Numbered from the stretch's first letter, positions 4,193 to 22,610 are shown. The stretch: 64,000 nucleotides of DNA from Candidatus Uhrbacteria bacterium (GCA_013204385.1 JABMNY010000003.1:14270-78269); one strand, 5' to 3'. Notes: a model not told the origin generated them from the letters alone. Numbers and translations: made by a program.

Positions 4193-4947
4193 ATGATGCC
4201 CCTATGGTAGACAACAACGCCCAACAAAACAACTCCCCAGACATTCGACCAAAAGTTGGAGTCGGCGTTCTTATTGTAAAAGAAGGAAAAGTACTTCTTG
4301 GGAAGCGAATCGGATCTGATGGAGCAAGGACTTGGAGTACGCCTGGAGGACATCTAGAATATAGAGAACGTTGGGACGAATGTGCTCAACGAGAAACACG
4401 AGAAGAAACAGGTCTTGAGATAAAAAACCTACGGTTCTTTGCGGTAACGAATGACCACTATCCTCAAAGTAAAAAGCACTACATCACAATCATCATGTTA
4501 AGCGATTGGAGTGAAGGGGTAATTGAAAATCGAGAACCAGAAAAATGTGAACAGTGGGAATGGTTTCAATGGGAAGAACTCCCCAGACCTCTGTTCACAC
4601 CCATGAACACGATCGTTCGCCAAGGCCTGCACCCACTCGTAGTCAGGCATGACAAACTCGTTCGAGATCGAATGGCAGAGATTATCGAGTCTCATGGAGA
4701 CACAGCGATTACCTCCACGGCTGATGACCATGAATTTAAACACCGCCTTCGATTGAAGCTGATTGAGGAAGTAGAAGAGTACCTTGAGAGCGAATCACCT
4801 GAAGAACTCGCAGACATCCTGGAAGTCATTCATTCACTCACTGCCCTTCATGGAGTGAACCGCGAACATCTCCATCTGATTCAAACTAAAAAACGCGACG
4901 AGCGCGGAGGGTTTGATAATCGGATTGTCCTAAAAGAGACGAGGTAA
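4180..4947 (+). CDS. NUDIX hydrolase fused to MazG/HisE-like all-alpha NTP pyrophosphohydrolase domain
   Basis: 255 aa; Nudix box GGHLEYRERWDECAQRETREETGL; C-terminal EE-rich helical domain (LIEEVEEYLESESPEELADILEVIHSL). Confidence 0.7.
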   Translation: MDTSYDAPMVDNNAQQNNSPDIRPKVGVGVLIVKEGKVLLGKRIGSDGARTWSTPGGHLEYRERWDECAQRETREETGLEIKNLRFFAVTNDHYPQSKKHYITIIMLSDWSEGVIENREPEKCEQWEWFQWEELPRPLFTPMNTIVRQGLHPLVVRHDKLVRDRMAEIIESHGDTAITSTADDHEFKHRLRLKLIEEVEEYLESESPEELADILEVIHSLTALHGVNREHLHLIQTKKRDERGGFDNRIVLKETR

Positions 4948-14316: not shown

Positions 14317-14526
14317 TTATTGTGAAAACTTTTCTTTAATCTCTTCGACTTTGTTCTCAACCTGGGCAAGTTTCTTTTTGAGTTCACTTGCAAGCTCTAA
14401 GCCTCGCTCAAACTTTTTCAAACCCGCATCCAGATCAAGTTGGTCTTCTGAATCAAACCATTTTGTGATCTCTTCGAGTTCTGAAAAGGCTTCTGTAAAA
14501 TTTACCTCTTGTTTTTTTGCGCTCAT
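14317..14526 (-). CDS. xseB: Exodeoxyribonuclease VII small subunit
   Basis: 69 aa coiled-coil MSAKKQEVNFTEAFSELEEITKWFDSEDQLDLDAGLKKFERGLELA. Confidence 0.85.
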   Translation of the reverse strand: MSAKKQEVNFTEAFSELEEITKWFDSEDQLDLDAGLKKFERGLELASELKKKLAQVENKVEEIKEKFSQ

Positions 14527-15731
14527 ACGAGTTTTTGCTGACCTTTATCTTTTAATCGCAGGATTCGTGCCTGAGCTGAACTTGTGGCGAATTGTACCGT
14601 AATCTCCCCTCCTACTTCAAGTTGCCCTGCGTCGCGCACCACAGCCCCTCCTGCCATGACAAGACTGTACCCTCGCGCGAGAATACGTTTTGGGTCTACC
14701 TGACGCAGGAATCGCTCTGATCCAGACAACCGATCACTCAGTCGTGGAAGCCAGGCATTCACACGAGAAAGGATTCCTTCTTGTGCACGTGACAGGCGAT
14801 CTTTCTGTCGCTCTAAAATAAATCCAATCAGATTTGTCACACGCTCAATACTGAATTGTTGATCCTGAATCGTGTCACGCAGGCGCGATTCCATATGTTG
14901 CTCAAGCGTCCCAATCTCATACAACACATCCTGCCTGCTCGGCACAATACGCTCGGCAGCGTTCGAAGGCGTCGACGCACGAATGTCTGCCACAAAATCT
15001 GCCAATGATTCATCTCGCTCATGCCCCACCGCACACACAACGGGAATCTCAGACGCATATACAGCGCGTGCCACAGCTTCGTCGTTAAATGCATGCAAAT
15101 CCTCAAGTCCTCCTCCCCCCCGCGTAAGCACAAGAACCTCTGGACGCTTCTCCGCAGGGAGCGCATTAAAAAACTGGAATGCGCCCACAATATCTCCCAC
15201 CGCTTCTCTTCCTTGTACATGGACATGTGCATGTAACACTTGCACACCTCCCCATCGATTATTTAGAATCCTCAAAAAATCTCCGTATGCAGCCGCGTCC
15301 CTTGAAGTTAAAAGTCCAATGCGTTCAGGAAATCGCGGGAGTTCACGCTTACGCCCCTCTCCAAAAAGTCCTTCATCCTGAAGTTTCTTTTTGAGTAATT
15401 CATACGATCGTCGCAATGCTCCTTCTCCTACAGCGGCAACCTCCGTTACATTCATCTTAAACGTCCCAAAGCGCTCGTAGATTTTTGGTGCGCCCTTGAG
15501 TTGCACCCGCATGCCATCTTCAATCGGAGATTTCAGTTGCCAGGTGGTCATAAAACATTTCAGAACGGCTTGCGCTTCTTCATCTTTCAAATCAAAACTG
15601 ACCCACTTTCCTTGGGCGACACGATAATCAGAAACTTCCCCCTCCACAATAACTTCATGGGAAGGAATACACTGCAATGTTTGATTGACGAGCGTTAAAT
15701 ACTCGCCAACAGAAAGCGCTTTTTCAGGCAT
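14523..15731 (-). CDS. xseA: Exodeoxyribonuclease VII large subunit
   Basis: 402 aa; OB-fold N-terminus and catalytic core LLTSRDAAAYGDFLRIL...LTRGGGGLEDLHAFNDE; 4-nt overlap with xseB. Confidence 0.9.
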   Translation of the reverse strand: MPEKALSVGEYLTLVNQTLQCIPSHEVIVEGEVSDYRVAQGKWVSFDLKDEEAQAVLKCFMTTWQLKSPIEDGMRVQLKGAPKIYERFGTFKMNVTEVAAVGEGALRRSYELLKKKLQDEGLFGEGRKRELPRFPERIGLLTSRDAAAYGDFLRILNNRWGGVQVLHAHVHVQGREAVGDIVGAFQFFNALPAEKRPEVLVLTRGGGGLEDLHAFNDEAVARAVYASEIPVVCAVGHERDESLADFVADIRASTPSNAAERIVPSRQDVLYEIGTLEQHMESRLRDTIQDQQFSIERVTNLIGFILERQKDRLSRAQEGILSRVNAWLPRLSDRLSGSERFLRQVDPKRILARGYSLVMAGGAVVRDAGQLEVGGEITVQFATSSAQARILRLKDKGQQKLV

Positions 15732-17148: not shown

Positions 17149-17468
17149 ATTCCCTTACCTTCGACAAATTCTCCGCAAGTAAATCCTGTTGGGCACTGGG
17201 CGTCACTCTCACACTCACAGTATTCGAAGCACAGATCAATACAAACCTCTCCAGGATTCAGTCGACACGCAGATCCGCACGCGTTCCATGTCCCTCCCGA
17301 ACTCGCACAACTTGTCTGATTCAATACACTCTCCTCAGATAGTTCTTCTTGTGCCTGCTCTGTACTGGTTGGAACTTCTTGCATTTCACGCTCTCCCCTT
17401 GGCATAAGCCAATACAACGCAATCAAGAGGGCTCCAAAGAACAGTATGGTGAATATCCCTTTTTTCAT
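17139..17468 (-). CDS. Small secreted cysteine-rich protein (12 Cys in C-terminal 55 aa)
   Basis: Start at MKKGIFTILFFGALLIAL (3 nt after upstream stop); CASSGGTWNACGSACRLNPGEVCIDLCFEYCECESDAQCPTGFTCGEFVEGKGICL. Confidence 0.5.
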   Translation of the reverse strand: MKKGIFTILFFGALLIALYWLMPRGEREMQEVPTSTEQAQEELSEESVLNQTSCASSGGTWNACGSACRLNPGEVCIDLCFEYCECESDAQCPTGFTCGEFVEGKGICL

Positions 17469-18865
17469 AAAATGGCATTTTCTCGCACCCAACGCTGAAG
17501 GACATATGTTGCACGTACATCATCCTCATTATATTCCAAAATTTTCTGCAACACTTTAGGTTTCTTTTTTTGTAGCCATTCTTCAAACCAAAGGACAGAA
17601 TTGGCTCCGCCTGCATCCTCTGCCCGCCAAGAAAAACCGATATAGGCAGCAATATCTTTTAACGAATAGGACGAGAGAGGGAAAATAACGGTTGGACGGA
17701 TAATGGAAAGCAAATCAATCATATTCGTCTCAAGTGCCTCACGCGCAATCTCTCCAATTCCATATTTCGCCCCAAAGCGACGGACGACCTCTTCTTCAAA
17801 CCATCCGTAATGATAGATTGGGGAATCAATATGACGTTCAATAAAATGGACAAACTCTGCCCACATCTCCCCTTCTTTTTCTGGAGACTCTGCAAAAAAT
17901 GAATGATAAACCTCCTCTTTCTCACTTACCTCCAACACCCCAAACAAGTAATCAAAATCCCGAAGCGGATCACTTTCAATATCAAAATAAAGTTCCGTTC
18001 CGGCTTCTGGTAAATGCGCAGTTCCTCGAATGATGTGGCGACGCTCTGTAAGTGCAATGGCTTGATCACGCATCATTTCAAGTCGCGATGAACTAACGTC
18101 TGGAGCAAGCGATTCTAGCTGCGTCACAGACATCAACGAGAGCTTGGCGATAGTGGTCACCCCCGCTTCTGCAAGCCGATGAACTTCCTCTCGCCAGACA
18201 CGATTCAGCAACGATAAATCATCACAACTCTCTGATTCATTTTTACATTCCTTCTGCCAAGGAGATTGCTTACACCCACTTGTCATAAAATGAGCTGGAC
18301 GCGCCCCAGAAATGATCTTCTCAATCTCTGTAAGCGTGAGCTCATACTCTGCCTCAAACTCTTCAATGAGATACGGAAATGTTTCGTTGTCCGGGGAGAC
18401 CACATACCCTTGAACAGGTCTCACTCCCTGAAGAGACTCGAGAAGCTCCGCATAAAAACAACCTTGAAACTTAAACTCATCTCGCAGAAAGCGCGAGCGC
18501 TTCATGTCTGCAGCCACGTAGTAAAAATTTCCAAGTCGTGAACGACCTTCAACTTTCTCAAGCACGTCCGGATGCCCTACCCAATGCTTATCAATCAGCA
18601 CACCATGATAAATGGTTTGACGCCCCTCTCGCATAAATGCGAGCGTTTGTTTGAAAGCTTCCTCTGGATCCTCTGCCGTTACTTCTACGAGATCTTGTTT
18701 ATCTGAAAGTAAATCACGCTCCTTTTCCTCAATAAGGCCATCGTCTTGAAGTTTTGCCATCAGCACCTCATGCGGTCTTGGCTCTCCAGAATGTGTATCA
18801 AAATACACCCAATTTGGACATTTGAGATATTGATAAAACGTCTTTTCCGTAATTGATCCATGCAT
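17465..18865 (-). CDS. TM0106-family RecB-like nuclease with C-terminal RNase-H-like exonuclease domain
   Basis: Start chosen at MHGSITEKTFYQYLKCPNWVYF (alternative 18916); YHGVLID..HPDVL..YYVAADMK nuclease core; C-terminal LYFDIESDP exonuclease-like motif. Confidence 0.65.
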   Translation of the reverse strand: MHGSITEKTFYQYLKCPNWVYFDTHSGEPRPHEVLMAKLQDDGLIEEKERDLLSDKQDLVEVTAEDPEEAFKQTLAFMREGRQTIYHGVLIDKHWVGHPDVLEKVEGRSRLGNFYYVAADMKRSRFLRDEFKFQGCFYAELLESLQGVRPVQGYVVSPDNETFPYLIEEFEAEYELTLTEIEKIISGARPAHFMTSGCKQSPWQKECKNESESCDDLSLLNRVWREEVHRLAEAGVTTIAKLSLMSVTQLESLAPDVSSSRLEMMRDQAIALTERRHIIRGTAHLPEAGTELYFDIESDPLRDFDYLFGVLEVSEKEEVYHSFFAESPEKEGEMWAEFVHFIERHIDSPIYHYGWFEEEVVRRFGAKYGIGEIAREALETNMIDLLSIIRPTVIFPLSSYSLKDIAAYIGFSWRAEDAGGANSVLWFEEWLQKKKPKVLQKILEYNEDDVRATYVLQRWVRENAIL

Positions 18866-18909
18866 ACACGCATTATAGCAGAGTCTTCTAAAATTTGGAG
18901 CATGTTGAG

Positions 18910-18939
18910 TTGACAATTTTGGCTATTTTCCCTAGATTA
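18910..18939 (+). promoter_or_regulatory. Near-consensus sigma70 promoter TTGACA-N17/18-TAGATT driving the E2/E1/Ubl operon
   Basis: ttgacaattttggctattttccctagatt; GGAG RBS ~6 nt before ATG at ~18985. Confidence 0.5.
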
Positions 18940-18984
18940 TGGAGTCCGAGTGAAATCGGAACGTTCTTTTACAACGGAGAACCC

Positions 18985-20406
18985 ATGCCCCAAAATACCG
19001 AGATCGATCAATTTCTCACGAGACCGCTTCACAAAGCGTTTCTTGTTCCAGAAGTCTATGGACTTGAACAAAGAGAAGCTCTCATCACAGCTGGATTCAA
19101 AACCAGCTTGAAGACTGCGCGCAGTGGTCACTTCGCTTTTCGTGCACTGTGCATTTACATCGGTCGTCGAGGAAACGCACGACTGCAACGATTGCAATCA
19201 GCCATCAAGATCATATTCGACTCGACCGATAAGCTCGCAAGCTTTGAAGGACGCATCGTTGATCAGATTCTGCCCATCATCGCTCCGAGCGATGTTACGG
19301 TCCATATTGATCAGACACAACGAAATGATTCGACTGGAAACGATCCGACGGAAAAAGCGCTAAACGCTTATCTTCCGATCCTGACACGATTGGCTCAGAT
19401 TTCCGGGCTCAGTGTGGAATTCCATGTTCCACAAAAAGAACGGCTTCACTCACCCCATGCATCCGACGGTGTGATCCATATCTACGCCAACGCCTGCCCA
19501 CCTGGAGAATATCAATCTTGGTATGTCGATACGGCATTTGGACTCACGATTGCTCCTGCATCAAAAGACCGGCCTGTCGGCTATGGCCCAACACAAGGAA
19601 GAGGAATTGTTCTGAAGGATGCAGATGAAAAAAATCTTGTTCAAATTCTCGAAGACACTTGGTACCTTCTCATTCCAACGCTTGGAATCTTCAATCCTTT
19701 GACGAGTGTCCAGATCTTCGAGCAATTGCTCGCGCTCGGTTGGGATGCGAAGCGCACGGGAAAGCCTACTGCCCAAAAACCTCTTCCGTGCACGAAATTT
19801 CTCCGAAAAGCTCGTACATGGATCGAACCGTTTGCGGATGGCGCTACGGAAAATGCACGCAACTGCGAAGAAGAGATCAAGCGATTGCATGCAAGGCTCG
19901 CAGAGAAAACGCGCGAACTCGTTCTCTGGAGAGGTATGGAAGAAGCTCTGAAAAAGACATCGTATTCTCGCGCAACCAAAAAACGGCTTCCAAAGGATCT
20001 TCAGATCATTCTCAATCTTCCGGATGTTGATCGCCTGGAACTCTTCGAGGATGCCATGCATGTGTGGACACGTCCTCTTGTCATCATTCATGAACTCGAG
20101 GCGTATCTCGCAGGAACTTTTGTTATTCGTCTCAACAAGGAAGGTGGTGTAACCGTGTGGAGTGAAGACTCCACCCATCCAGACGGGGTTCCTCATCCGC
20201 ATATCGCCAAGCATGGCGGTCCTTGCTTTGGAAACGCTGGAACAGCCATAGCTAAAGCTGGAGGAGAGGCGCGTTACGCAGATGCTGTAAAGCATGTCCT
20301 CACCTGGCTGATACTTGGTTACACACCAAATCTGGCAACAGTGAAAATTGAAGCATGGCCGAAAGTCCCAAGCATGGAGAACTCCGATGCAACCTCCCCC
20401 TCCTGA
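18985..20406 (+). CDS. 473-aa protein: uncharacterised N-terminal ~380 aa fused to C-terminal UBC/E2-like domain (HPH-x4-G-x-C)
   Basis: Start at MPQNTEIDQF (ORF track start 18895 is upstream alternative); C-terminal HPHIAKHGGPCFGNAG...LTWLILGYTPN resembles E2 catalytic core; GC above flanks. Confidence 0.6.
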   Translation: MPQNTEIDQFLTRPLHKAFLVPEVYGLEQREALITAGFKTSLKTARSGHFAFRALCIYIGRRGNARLQRLQSAIKIIFDSTDKLASFEGRIVDQILPIIAPSDVTVHIDQTQRNDSTGNDPTEKALNAYLPILTRLAQISGLSVEFHVPQKERLHSPHASDGVIHIYANACPPGEYQSWYVDTAFGLTIAPASKDRPVGYGPTQGRGIVLKDADEKNLVQILEDTWYLLIPTLGIFNPLTSVQIFEQLLALGWDAKRTGKPTAQKPLPCTKFLRKARTWIEPFADGATENARNCEEEIKRLHARLAEKTRELVLWRGMEEALKKTSYSRATKKRLPKDLQIILNLPDVDRLELFEDAMHVWTRPLVIIHELEAYLAGTFVIRLNKEGGVTVWSEDSTHPDGVPHPHIAKHGGPCFGNAGTAIAKAGGEARYADAVKHVLTWLILGYTPNLATVKIEAWPKVPSMENSDATSPS

Positions 20407-21052
20407 CCGTTCCATGAACTTTGATCAACAAGATGAGCTCTTTGATCCCGCACTTGCACGACCTGTTACCGTCATTGGTGCAGGGTCTGTTGGTGGTGAA
20501 GTGGTGGTCAAACTCTCTCAAATCGGAGCAGTGAATATCCAAGTTTGGGACAATGATGATGTAGCTTCACACAATATTCCTATGAGCGTCTATCGGATCA
20601 AGGACCTCGGTCGTTATAAAGTCGATGCTCTCAAGGAGATTGTAAGAGAAAAAAGTGGAATAGAGATCAGAACTCACCTGAAAAATTGGACGAGACAGCC
20701 CCTCAGGGATTCCGTCATTTGTTGTGTTGATTCCATGGATGTTCGTTGCGATGTCTGGGGGATCGTACGAGACAATCCACTCATCGATGTCTTCATTGAC
20801 ACACGGATCGCAAAAGAATTCGTCGTGGTCTATGCCATCAACCCCACAGACCCAGTACAGATCGCGTTTTACGAATCGCGATTGTACTCCTCAAGCGAAG
20901 CGGTAACGCCAACATGTGGAGACCATGGCATAACCTATGTCAGTAGTATCGCCGCCAGTGCAGCTATTGCACGATTGACGAATTCGTGGAAAGGCGGTAC
21001 AAATTCCCCACTATTTGAGATGTTGGTGGGTAACCTCCTTCAAATCACCTAG
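20387..21052 (+). CDS. ThiF/MoeB-type E1-like adenylyltransferase (short, no rhodanese domain)
   Basis: VTVIGAGSVGGEVVVKL (GxGxxG), VWDNDDVASHNIPMSVY, D..ICCVDS ThiF pattern; ATG at ~20387 has GGAG RBS and overlaps upstream gene by ~20 nt. Confidence 0.75.
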   Translation: MQPPPPDRSMNFDQQDELFDPALARPVTVIGAGSVGGEVVVKLSQIGAVNIQVWDNDDVASHNIPMSVYRIKDLGRYKVDALKEIVREKSGIEIRTHLKNWTRQPLRDSVICCVDSMDVRCDVWGIVRDNPLIDVFIDTRIAKEFVVVYAINPTDPVQIAFYESRLYSSSEAVTPTCGDHGITYVSSIAASAAIARLTNSWKGGTNSPLFEMLVGNLLQIT

Positions 21053-21090
21053 TTCATCATGAATCGATCAAAAAGTTGCAAGGAGCCCTA

Positions 21091-21339
21091 ATGTCAGCCA
21101 CAGTCACCGTACGAGTGGTTCCGCTAAGCGGAACCCCGACCGAAGTCACCGTACCATTCAAGAAGGGAATGACCGTCAATTCGGCGCTCACCGCCGCGGG
21201 GGTCTCGAGCGACAAGCGCGACCTCTCTGTCGAAGCGGCTCCGGGCCAGACCCTCAAGTCGGGTCAGACCGTCGTCGTCACGGATAAGGTCAAGGCCGGC
21301 GGGCAGGTCACTGTCCGCGAACGTCCACAGGGGTCCTGA
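21091..21339 (+). CDS. Small beta-grasp-sized protein (candidate ubiquitin-like/ThiS-like carrier) with internal GG followed by 11-aa C-terminal tail
   Basis: MSATVTVRVVPLSGTPTEVTVPFKKGMTVNSALTAAGV...TVVVTDKVKAGG|QVTVRERPQGS; AAGGAG RBS 5 nt upstream; ~60% GC. Confidence 0.5.
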   Translation: MSATVTVRVVPLSGTPTEVTVPFKKGMTVNSALTAAGVSSDKRDLSVEAAPGQTLKSGQTVVVTDKVKAGGQVTVRERPQGS

Positions 21340-21450
21340 CCCTACAACAACAAGAGTGCCGTCTCCGACACTCCGCTACGCCCCGACCCCTCATTGAGCG
21401 GTCGGTTTTATTTTTCCTTATTTGTCGGCGGCTCAGCCCCCGACCTGGTT
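21340..21450 (+). terminator. Intrinsic terminator (ccgacc-N11-ggtcgg + TTTTATTTTT) followed by conserved 34-nt module TTATTTGTCGGCGGCTCAGCCCCCGACCTGGTTG
   Basis: Module recurs as reverse complement at 35405-35452 downstream of the other high-GC orphan gene. Confidence 0.55.
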
Positions 21451-21464
21451 GGCTAAAACGTGTG

Positions 21465-22610
21465 TCATGGAAGATAGTTTGCGGGCTCGTACACATTTCG
21501 GGCATTCCACAGAATCCACCCACTTGCCCCGGCGTCACGTGCCGCTTGGATCTGTGCCTCGATCAATGTACTTGTGTACACTGCGCCAATGTCAAAATCT
21601 TGAAGCCATGGTCGCCAATGCGATCGCAGCTCCTCTTCGGTTCCCGAATACATTCCAAGCATCAAGTGTGTTCCTGAATCCAATGCCATTTTCACGATCT
21701 CATACGGATACAAAGCTGGATTTCCAAGTCCTTTAAATCCGTCTGGATAATGCGAGGGATACACCATGGGTGAAACCCAATCAGCAAAGGGAAAGACATC
21801 CGCTAAACGCTGACCGATATTATAATCATGATGGGACTCAAACGTCATGCCAAACACATCAAACGAAACAGGAATCCCTTCATCATGCATCGTCCCTCCC
21901 ACGGTTTGAAAAAATCTCTGCATCACTTCCACTTTTGTCTCGCGGTGATCATACACAGGATAGACAGTCGCGTTCACGGCGCCATCTGAAGCAAATCGCA
22001 CATAGTCATACTGAATCTCATCGAATCCCGCTTCGTAAAATCGTCGACCAAGTTCGATAGCGTAGTCTGAGACTTCTTGTGCGGAAGGATCCACCCAAAC
22101 CGATCCGATCGAATCAGTCCAATACCCTCCTCCTAACGAGCGCAGTGCCACACTTGGATGATCCCAAGCAAATGCTCCATCACGCATCACCGCGATGCGT
22201 GCGATCCGATAGATTCCTGCGTCCGCAAGACGCACCAATACTTCCCTAAAATCCTCGACCTCAAGCAGTTGTCCATTATCCATCTTCACATCAATCACTA
22301 CCGCGTTCAGCCCCGTCTCCAACATGTACTCAATCAATTGATCTGCACGTGCATTCGTTGCTGTCACAGCGGTCCAATAGATTCCACGCACTTCTTCTGG
22401 AAGAAGTACGTGCGAAGTAACTTCAACAGGGAATTCTTCTTCTACTCCCTCTTTTTCCTCAACCAGCAGTTCTTCAGGCTCTGTTTGTATCACGAGCTCA
22501 ACTTCTTTCTTTTGTTCCTGATGCATCAACATCCCGATACCCAACACAATCAAAAGCGCAGAAAACAAAAACACAGGGACGAGAAACTCGACCCTGTGTT
22601 TGGTATCCAT
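21465..22610 (-). CDS. Membrane-anchored TIM-barrel glycoside-hydrolase-like (GHL10/DUF4015-like) protein
   Basis: 381 aa; N-terminal TM; weak family recollection only. Confidence 0.45.
   Translation of the reverse strand: MDTKHRVEFLVPVFLFSALLIVLGIGMLMHQEQKKEVELVIQTEPEELLVEEKEGVEEEFPVEVTSHVLLPEEVRGIYWTAVTATNARADQLIEYMLETGLNAVVIDVKMDNGQLLEVEDFREVLVRLADAGIYRIARIAVMRDGAFAWDHPSVALRSLGGGYWTDSIGSVWVDPSAQEVSDYAIELGRRFYEAGFDEIQYDYVRFASDGAVNATVYPVYDHRETKVEVMQRFFQTVGGTMHDEGIPVSFDVFGMTFESHHDYNIGQRLADVFPFADWVSPMVYPSHYPDGFKGLGNPALYPYEIVKMALDSGTHLMLGMYSGTEEELRSHWRPWLQDFDIGAVYTSTLIEAQIQAARDAGASGWILWNARNVYEPANYLP

Follow-up and report, generated by a model that had tools for sequence, protein, structure and literature searches.

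The 64,000-nucleotide stretch of Candidatus Uhrbacteria DNA analyzed here (the window) carries an operon of three genes, designated A, E1 and Ubl, on its plus strand. This operon probably encodes a self-contained, three-component ubiquitin-like conjugation cascade, a reading to which we assign a probability of about 0.62. The whole analysis is based on sequence and predicted structure. Folds and families, invariant residues, a strict linkage of the three genes, their translational coupling, a promoter and a terminator were established by computation; from these we infer every chemical step, the role of the N-terminal region of protein A and the kind of target. A ubiquitin-like conjugation module of unusual architecture had been proposed here in an earlier, sequence-only reading, and this core claim was supported by every test that could be run. 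The three open reading frames were recovered with the positions and peptides given in that reading, except that the small protein has 82 residues rather than 83. The features of the locus are the following:

18910..18938, plus strand: promoter-like site (TTGACA, 17 nucleotides, TAGATT) 5' of gene A, with 10 of 12 consensus matches
18985..20406, plus strand: gene A, open reading frame of 473 amino acids, E2-like protein with a large N-terminal region; GGAG at 18976-18979
18985..19770, plus strand: residues 1-262 of protein A, alpha/beta domain with a class-I glutamine-amidotransferase-like (GH42 domain B / ThuA / GIFT) fold, without a conserved nucleophile
19771..20019, plus strand: residues about 263-345 of protein A, long helical hairpin (coiled coil) running into the UBC-like domain
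20020..20370, plus strand: residues 346-462 of protein A, UBC/RWD-fold (E2-like) domain
20194..20226, plus strand: predicted E2 active site, His404-Pro405-His406 ... Cys414 (H-P-H-x7-C), from invariance and the UBE2L3 alignment
20387..21052, plus strand: gene E1, 221 amino acids, minimal single-domain ThiF/E1-like adenylating enzyme (PF00899); GGAG at 20375-20378
20915..20917, plus strand: Cys177 of E1 (C-G-x-H-G), candidate thioester-forming cysteine; C177, G178 and H180 are invariant in nine diverse E1s
21091..21339, plus strand: gene Ubl, 82 amino acids, beta-grasp small protein of SAMP2/ThiS type by profile matches; AGGAG at 21081-21085
21319..21336, plus strand: C-terminus of Ubl, Glu-Arg-Pro-Gln-Gly-Ser, predicted activation site, a conserved end across loci
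21383..21415, plus strand: intrinsic-terminator-like hairpin and U-run closing the operon, minimum free energy -20.3 kcal/mol, z = -3.35 against shuffles

The identification of protein A (100% identical to HQ487_00245) as E2-like is centered on its C-terminal domain. In the AlphaFold2 model, built from 141 sequences with a mean predicted local distance difference test score of 92, this domain shows the helix, the four-stranded meander, the active-site loop and the C-terminal helices of the UBC/RWD fold. The fold comparison lists MMS2 (7.2), Ubc12 (7.1), UBE2F (7.0), the E2 of CBASS (anti-phage signaling based on cyclic oligonucleotides; 6.3) and Cap2 (5.7); a search of the PDB by Foldseek with a shallow first model of protein A gave no significant match. 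The UBC-type catalytic motif proposed from the sequence was borne out in the family, since H-P-H-x7-C-x-G is kept in 160 of the 162 proteins retrieved, with a His-to-Cys spacing of 10 in 155. In the window protein the cysteine, C414, follows H404-P-H406 at about the distance known from H-P-N-type motifs. Across 141 sequences reaching down to about 20% identity, H404, H406, C414, G416 and Y446 are invariant, and P405, W392, H398, G377, P172, G174, G205, G207 and Q220 are more than 90% conserved. When a profile of the C-terminal domain was compared with PDB sequences, UBE2L3 accounted for nine of the ten matches, at E-values (0.11-0.22) that are not significant alone. The alignment keeps its register from helix 1, across HPN/HPH and up to the catalytic cysteine, and HMMER places the H-P-H...C of protein A on the HPN...Cys86 of UBE2L3. 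Based on fold, motif, spacing and genomic partners together, the best reading of this domain is an active E2-like domain, predicted to form a thioester.

The remainder of protein A, previously described as an unknown domain of 380 residues, is now resolved into a glutamine-amidotransferase-like alpha/beta fold followed by a coiled coil. The helical hairpin, modelled at residues 269-343, resembles those that precede the RWD domains of kinetochore proteins. The Cys-His-Glu triad of catalytic class-I glutamine amidotransferases is absent from the alpha/beta fold. Furthermore, no cysteine or histidine is conserved in the N-terminal region, which is thus read as a non-catalytic module for binding or oligomerization. 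The family is large: an exhaustive profile search, clustered at 50% identity, returned 2,084 representatives at E<=1e-3, 664 at <=1e-10 and 174 at <=1e-30. A second search for homologues with a 27-sequence profile added one new protein only. Protein A had no match in Pfam, NCBIfam, PADLOC or PHROGs, and 27 diverse relatives had none in Pfam or NCBIfam.

The second gene encodes a ThiF-type enzyme, as had been read from its signature. Pfam ThiF (PF00899) was matched with 47.5 bits against a cut-off of 28.1 (1.6e-12). A profile of nine E1 sequences matched E. coli ThiF best among PDB entries (4.8e-10), followed by TcdA, PaaA, MccB, Cap2, UBA5, UBA1 and the NEDD8 E1. Residues invariant among these nine diverse sequences are the GxGxxG loop (G31-x-G-x-x-G36), D55, D57, K78, D115, R120 and C177-G-x-H180. 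D115, the predicted Mg-binding aspartate, aligns with 'CTDNMATR' of ThiF, and Cys177 would lie in the crossover loop, judged by where it falls in comparison with ThiF and MoeB. The cut-offs of the NCBIfam equivalogs are missed by a wide margin for ThiF (43.8 against 159), MoeB (22.1 against 266) and PRTRC_ThiF (29 against 144.75), as well as for the SAMP E1 and 6A-MBL cap2_3. In PADLOC, only its nucleotide-binding region was matched, by the E1 half of E1-E2 (Cap2-type) models. A near end-to-end match (residues 21-199 of 221, 3.3e-9) was also found to the phage family phrog_15670, showing that some phages carry a similar minimal ThiF-like protein.

The third gene product is a beta-grasp ubiquitin-like protein (Ubl) by its sequence matches. 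A 12-sequence profile matched P. furiosus SAMP2 (2.7e-6), PF1061 (4.4e-6) and RnfH (0.004) in the PDB, and also H. volcanii SAMP2. Among 12 homologues compared with Pfam, Ub-Mut7C was matched by nine, SAMP2 by six and ThiS by five, with RnfH matched as well. In nearly all loci the protein closes with E-[RK]-[PA]-x-G-S: ERPQGS is the ending at most loci, and EKARGS, ERPAGS, EKPRGS and ERPRGS are found at distant ones. This tail has the same length and position as the C-terminal tail of SAMP2, which ends in GG. The sequence-only reading had instead placed a Gly-Gly followed by a cleavable tail at an internal AGG. Alignment of the relatives rules this out: the position reads AGG, PGD, AGS or AGD and matches the Gly-Asp turn that precedes the final strand in ThiS-type proteins, and the conserved end is ERPxGS.

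Several variants of Ubl were observed. The protein of locus L013 (9505-10002) ends in QRPQGG and has an internal insertion ahead of the last strand. Uhrbacteria-type proteins have a 10-residue insertion (PGQTLKSGQT…) ahead of the last turn. In a high-GC lineage (L001, L004, L007, L008, L009, L011 and L028), Ubl begins with a Lys/Ser/Gly-rich extension of about 15 residues (MARKKSGSGKKKSGSK…) that is not in the window protein. In three independent assemblies (L016, at 4860-4912, L017 and L018) Ubl stops early at VELRP, and the +1 frame directly reads VRVAERPQGS and then a stop; a frameshift, a shared assembly error and a pseudogene are alternative explanations.

The three genes are strictly linked. 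The order A, E1, Ubl on one strand was found at all related loci that are long enough, about 25 distinct ones without exception, and the co-occurrence of the genes that the earlier reading had proposed to check in homologues was thereby established. These loci were drawn from nine exact-protein lookups, seven loci of species-representative genomes and twelve metagenome loci, and were verified with purpose-built hidden Markov models. Among them are a Kaiserbacteria contig of 1.0 Mb and members that share only 21-28% identity with the window protein. At all linked loci the A and E1 genes overlap or abut. As had been noted, the ATG of E1 and its GGAG lie inside gene A; the overlap is 20 nucleotides, and a GGAG precedes all three ATGs by 5-12 nucleotides. 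The start of gene A at ATG 18985 agrees with an alignment of 13 homologues. The flanking genes vary by lineage and include a peptidyl-prolyl isomerase (PPIase) and MetK; EEP-family genes and an AAA_28 gene; Fpg and a photolyase; ParAB and TopA; and ribosomal protein L28. As claimed for the window, neither a JAB peptidase nor a cyclase was found at its locus; none was found at the related loci either, and the same is true of DUF6527, RING and a second Ubl gene. The triplet recurs in tiny-genome bacteria of the Patescibacteria or candidate phyla radiation (CPR) type, including genomes of about 1 Mb. The metagenome-assembled genomes of the high-GC lineage have conflicting labels (Parcubacteria, Patescibacteria group, Binatia, Gammaproteobacteria and Eisenbacteria), and for one flanking enzyme the nearest named relatives are labelled Eisenbacteria, Binatia and Patescibacteria group. 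This leaves the taxonomic range uncertain, and restriction to the CPR cannot be claimed.

The operon is bracketed by transcription signals. The TTGACA-TAGATT promoter-like site of the earlier reading is present, and its boxes are conserved in syntenic relatives (L006, L026 and L024), where TTGAC of the -35 box never varies and the -10 box is kept, although sites of this type in the region are no more numerous than in shuffles. The proposed hairpin and U-run terminator folds better than shuffles. The hairpin proper spans 21383-21405 and is followed by UUUUAUUUUU, and equivalent hairpins with T-runs lie 3' of the Ubl gene in four other genomes (L009, L012, L013 and L014).

The proposed cascade would operate in four steps. 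First, the 221-residue ThiF-type E1, probably a homodimer like its relatives, would bind the 82-residue Ubl and adenylate its C-terminal carboxylate, with the terminal Gly-Ser placed where SAMP2 and ubiquitin have Gly-Gly. Second, the invariant Cys177 of E1 would receive Ubl as a thioester. Third, Ubl would move to the invariant Cys414 in the UBC-fold domain of protein A, where the H-P-H motif is predicted to fill the role of the eukaryotic H-P-N. Fourth, protein A would hand Ubl to an amine on the target. The variable amidotransferase-like N-terminal domain and the coiled coil of protein A are proposed to bind the target or an activating ligand and may oligomerize the enzyme. This cascade is favored because of the ThiF match, the beta-grasp Ubl, its conserved ERPxGS end, the gene linkage, the operon signals and the variable recognition module.

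Several observations weigh against such a cascade. The E1 lacks the Arg of the N-L-x-R-Q motif (the segment reads S-H-N-I-P-M-S) and has no CxxC zinc site, so its competence for adenylation is an assumption; these losses, together with the sub-cut-off scores given above, mark it as a minimal and divergent enzyme outside every named subfamily. The Pfam E2 models (UQ_con and Prok-E2_A to E) matched none of 27 diverse members of the A family at E<=10. The C-terminus of Ubl is GS in nearly all loci and GG in one only (L013). To our knowledge, activated Ubls with a C-terminal serine have no precedent, and removal of the terminal Ser by some peptidase might be needed. Finally, the operon has no E3 and no deconjugating peptidase, and a target, an E3 and a deconjugase were not identifiable.

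Comparison with characterized systems places the operon close to several and within none. In Bil (BilABCD; type 6C/CEHH), as here, a free-standing Ubl is served by a separate E1 and E2 in the absence of an E3, with a cysteine relay and an E2 thought to choose the target (PMC11601596; PMC10557695). Bil has a JAB peptidase (BilC), a multidomain E1 and a CEHH-type E2, whereas the operon described here has neither the JAB nor the multidomain E1; its E1 is a single domain of 180-225 residues, its E2 carries a 345-residue N-terminal region and its Ubl ends in Gly-Ser. Bub (6E / DUF6527) is similar in its minimal E1 of the homodimer type, which resembles ThiF and UBA5, and in having a UBC fold that has diverged (PMC11601596). 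However, Bub uses Ser/Tyr oxyesters without catalytic cysteines, contains fusions of Ubl to E2 or of E2 to E1, and includes a serine protease of the DUF6527 type; here Cys414 of the E2 and Cys177 of the E1 are invariant, the genes are separate and no DUF6527 neighbor was seen. The E2-E1 fusion, conjugated CD-NTase and JAB peptidase of type II CBASS (Cap2/Cap3) are likewise not present. The closest sequence relatives are in the SAMP2/UbaA, ThiS/ThiF and MoaD/MoeB systems (SAMP2 for Ubl and ThiF for E1), which also have no dedicated E3; unlike the operon described here, they have no E2 and end in Gly-Gly, and its E1 lies far under their curated cut-offs. PRTRC systems combine a ThiF, an E2-like and a Ubl-like protein on conjugative elements; in addition to the low PRTRC_ThiF score, no PRTRC model matches protein A or Ubl, and neither ParB nor other PRTRC genes are near the operon. 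In all of the operon types 6a-6e a JAB is present and the E1 is fused or multidomain (Iyer et al. 2006; PMC1779556). Among bacterial E1-E2-Ubl operons, the triplet is thus distinguished by three separate genes, no peptidase, a Gly-Ser Ubl end, a minimal E1 and an E2 joined through a coiled coil to a GATase1-like domain. Full-text literature searches found no paper describing it.

The explanation that best survives beside the proposed cascade has the same biochemistry and assigns it to anti-phage defense. The operon would be a Bil analogue without a deubiquitinating peptidase, the variable N-terminal region of its E2 would recognize a structural protein of the phage, and the tag would disrupt the assembly of virions. 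We consider this possible, at well under even odds. All characterized bacterial E1/E2/Ubl operons serve phage defense, and Bil E2s have been proposed to recognize their targets directly (PMC11601596; PMC10557695). The evolution of the module in three syntenic Uhrbacteria-type genomes is in line with this explanation: flanking proteins (RecB-like nuclease, PPIase, MetK and DUF4015) are 77-92% identical, compared with 45-55% for A, 66-72% for E1 and 65-70% for Ubl. Trees are incongruent, as expected of a swapped or fast-evolving conflict cassette, with the window paired with L026 by its flanks and with L025 by its module. Nucleotide similarity to L026 ends at 18947, just past the -10 box, and returns at 22561. 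The UBC domain of the syntenic L006 (61.5% identity to the window) is no closer than that of a remote lineage. In these genomes the module looks like a cassette replacement between conserved flanks. Protein A varies most in its non-catalytic parts, the N-terminal region and coiled coil, and its UBC domain holds at about 60% identity. Against defense, none of the loci has known defense genes, integrases or signs of mobile elements next to the triplet, and the PADLOC matches are confined to the nucleotide-binding region of E1. A phage or plasmid origin was considered and rejected: tblastn of one distant member (P0130) against phage and plasmid collections returned nothing, and no relative emerged when viral contigs were scanned by pattern. 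Furthermore, in the second lineage with good sampling, module and flanks have descended vertically together across long distances and co-diverge, with A changing about twice as fast as the flanks and E1 more conserved than the neighbors (in L007, A 76%, E1 92% and flanks 86-87%; in L011, A 41% and flanks 65-79%).

As to the role of the proposed cascade, we lean toward a conflict or stress function, such as the tagging of damaged or foreign proteins in the manner of Bil, and away from a biosynthetic function. The cassette-like divergence favors a conflict function, as does the precedent of Bil, Bub and CBASS (PMC11601596; PMC10557695), whereas a resident cellular function is favored by the lack of defense or mobile neighbors, by genomes of about 1 Mb and by long vertical inheritance. 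A broader proposal is one that we put forward tentatively and would not expect to hold in full: a widespread, previously unrecognized chromosomal Ubl conjugation pathway of ultra-small bacteria, in which Ubl is activated at a C-terminal Ser without proteolytic maturation by a minimal E1, and an E2 with a fused recognition domain of its own serves as E2 and E3 in one. Mobile phage defense of the classical kind would not be the role of this pathway, and candidates are tagging linked to DNA damage, stress or episymbiosis, or a non-protein acceptor.

A sulfur-carrier pathway is an unlikely alternative. Here E1 would adenylate Ubl, which would then be thiocarboxylated and serve as the sulfur donor for a cofactor or tRNA, on the pattern of ThiS/ThiF, MoaD/MoeB and TtuB/TtuC, and the cysteine of protein A would be a persulfide relay. 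Such a pathway is in keeping with the best matches of Ubl (SAMP2, ThiS and RnfH) and of E1 (ThiF), with the missing deconjugating peptidase and with the position of the triplet, which is often among ordinary metabolic or housekeeping genes. The E1, however, is far under the ThiF and MoeB equivalog cut-offs, the terminus of Ubl is GS rather than GG, and, at the loci with Pfam-labelled neighbors, ThiG/ThiH, MoaE, TtuA, rhodanese and cysteine desulfurase never adjoin the triplet. The obligate partner is, moreover, a UBC-fold protein with an HPH...Cys motif, and we know of no sulfur-transfer role for such proteins. Least probable of all is a tailoring function, in which E1 would modify the C-terminal serine of Ubl in the manner of MccB or PaaA, or couple Ubl to a small molecule or lipid, with protein A as the acceptor-binding partner: the closest relatives of E1 with a solved structure include MccB and PaaA, the C-terminal hexapeptide is strikingly invariant and the N-terminal fold of protein A is like that of ligand- or sugar-binding GIFT/ThuA/GH42-B domains, but the likeness to MccB and PaaA is restricted to the common nucleotide-binding (Rossmann) half (residues about 20-90), the substrate is a folded beta-grasp protein and no short peptide, and the GG ending at L013 argues for the importance of the terminal carboxylate and against that of the Ser side chain.

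Operons of the E1/E2/Ubl kind are rare in bacteria, have been characterized recently and have so far all been linked to phage defense, each known type having a peptidase and a fused or multidomain E1. The module described here, with three separate genes and no peptidase, is the barest layout we have encountered. Its family of 2,084 clusters is without a Pfam, NCBIfam or PADLOC model and occurs in genomes that, at about 1 Mb, have little to spare. An active cascade would broaden E1 chemistry, because the activated residue would be a terminal Ser, and it would provide a natural E2 carrying a built-in recognition domain. It would also be a small, tractable model for E2-dependent tagging arising from ThiF/ThiS-type systems. 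Is the module a defense system or a housekeeping pathway? Its hyper-divergence as a cassette in one lineage and its stable vertical inheritance in another make this question directly testable.

The composition of the operon is uneven. A guanine-plus-cytosine (GC) content of about 55-60%, higher than in the flanks, had been attributed to all three genes; the claim holds for Ubl alone (63.5%, with 73.5% at third codon positions). Genes A (49.5%) and E1 (47.6%) are within the spread of the window (mean 46%, standard deviation about 3%). Ubl is by far the GC-richest gene of the region and is in the top 0.1% of 249-nucleotide windows. In 10 of 11 other loci, too, its GC content is the highest among the three genes (at L020, for instance, 60.1% in a locus of 47.6%), and codon bias from high expression may explain the excess. 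Because the anomaly is limited to the small gene and recurs in other genomes, a recent foreign insertion argued from GC was rejected for A and E1. At L026 the module has about 60-65% GC within a locus of 51%.

The surroundings of the triplet provide some further observations. The whole 64-kb window contains no tRNA genes and no Rfam families at the gathering threshold. A DUF4015 gene (21465-22610) follows the operon in the window and is found in L024/L025, and it does not occur in L006/L026. In the 120-bp control region upstream of gene A, a LexA-type operator was sought by eye and dismissed, with only a GAACGTTC palindrome without a spacer found. The divergent neighbor had been described as RecB-like, correctly: it is a TM0106-type RecB-like nuclease (TIGR03491, 2e-99; 17465-18916, minus strand). 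Its start is likelier to be the ATG at 18865 (MHGSI…) than the TTG at 18916 (minus strand), because the alignment with TIGR03491 begins at residue 23 of the long form and a conserved TATAAT is located a short way upstream on the same strand. Genes of DNA-repair type are found repeatedly in the vicinity of the triplet, in such small genomes possibly by coincidence. This nuclease is divergent from the triplet and syntenic in four genomes, and XseA/XseB (14317-15731, minus strand) lie 3 kb away in the window. Elsewhere, Fpg and a photolyase (L020), a photolyase (L036), LexA (L006) and an RNase_H_2-type exonuclease with a ribonucleotide reductase (L037) are nearby, and in the high-GC lineage one or two EEP-family genes are immediately 5' of the triplet.

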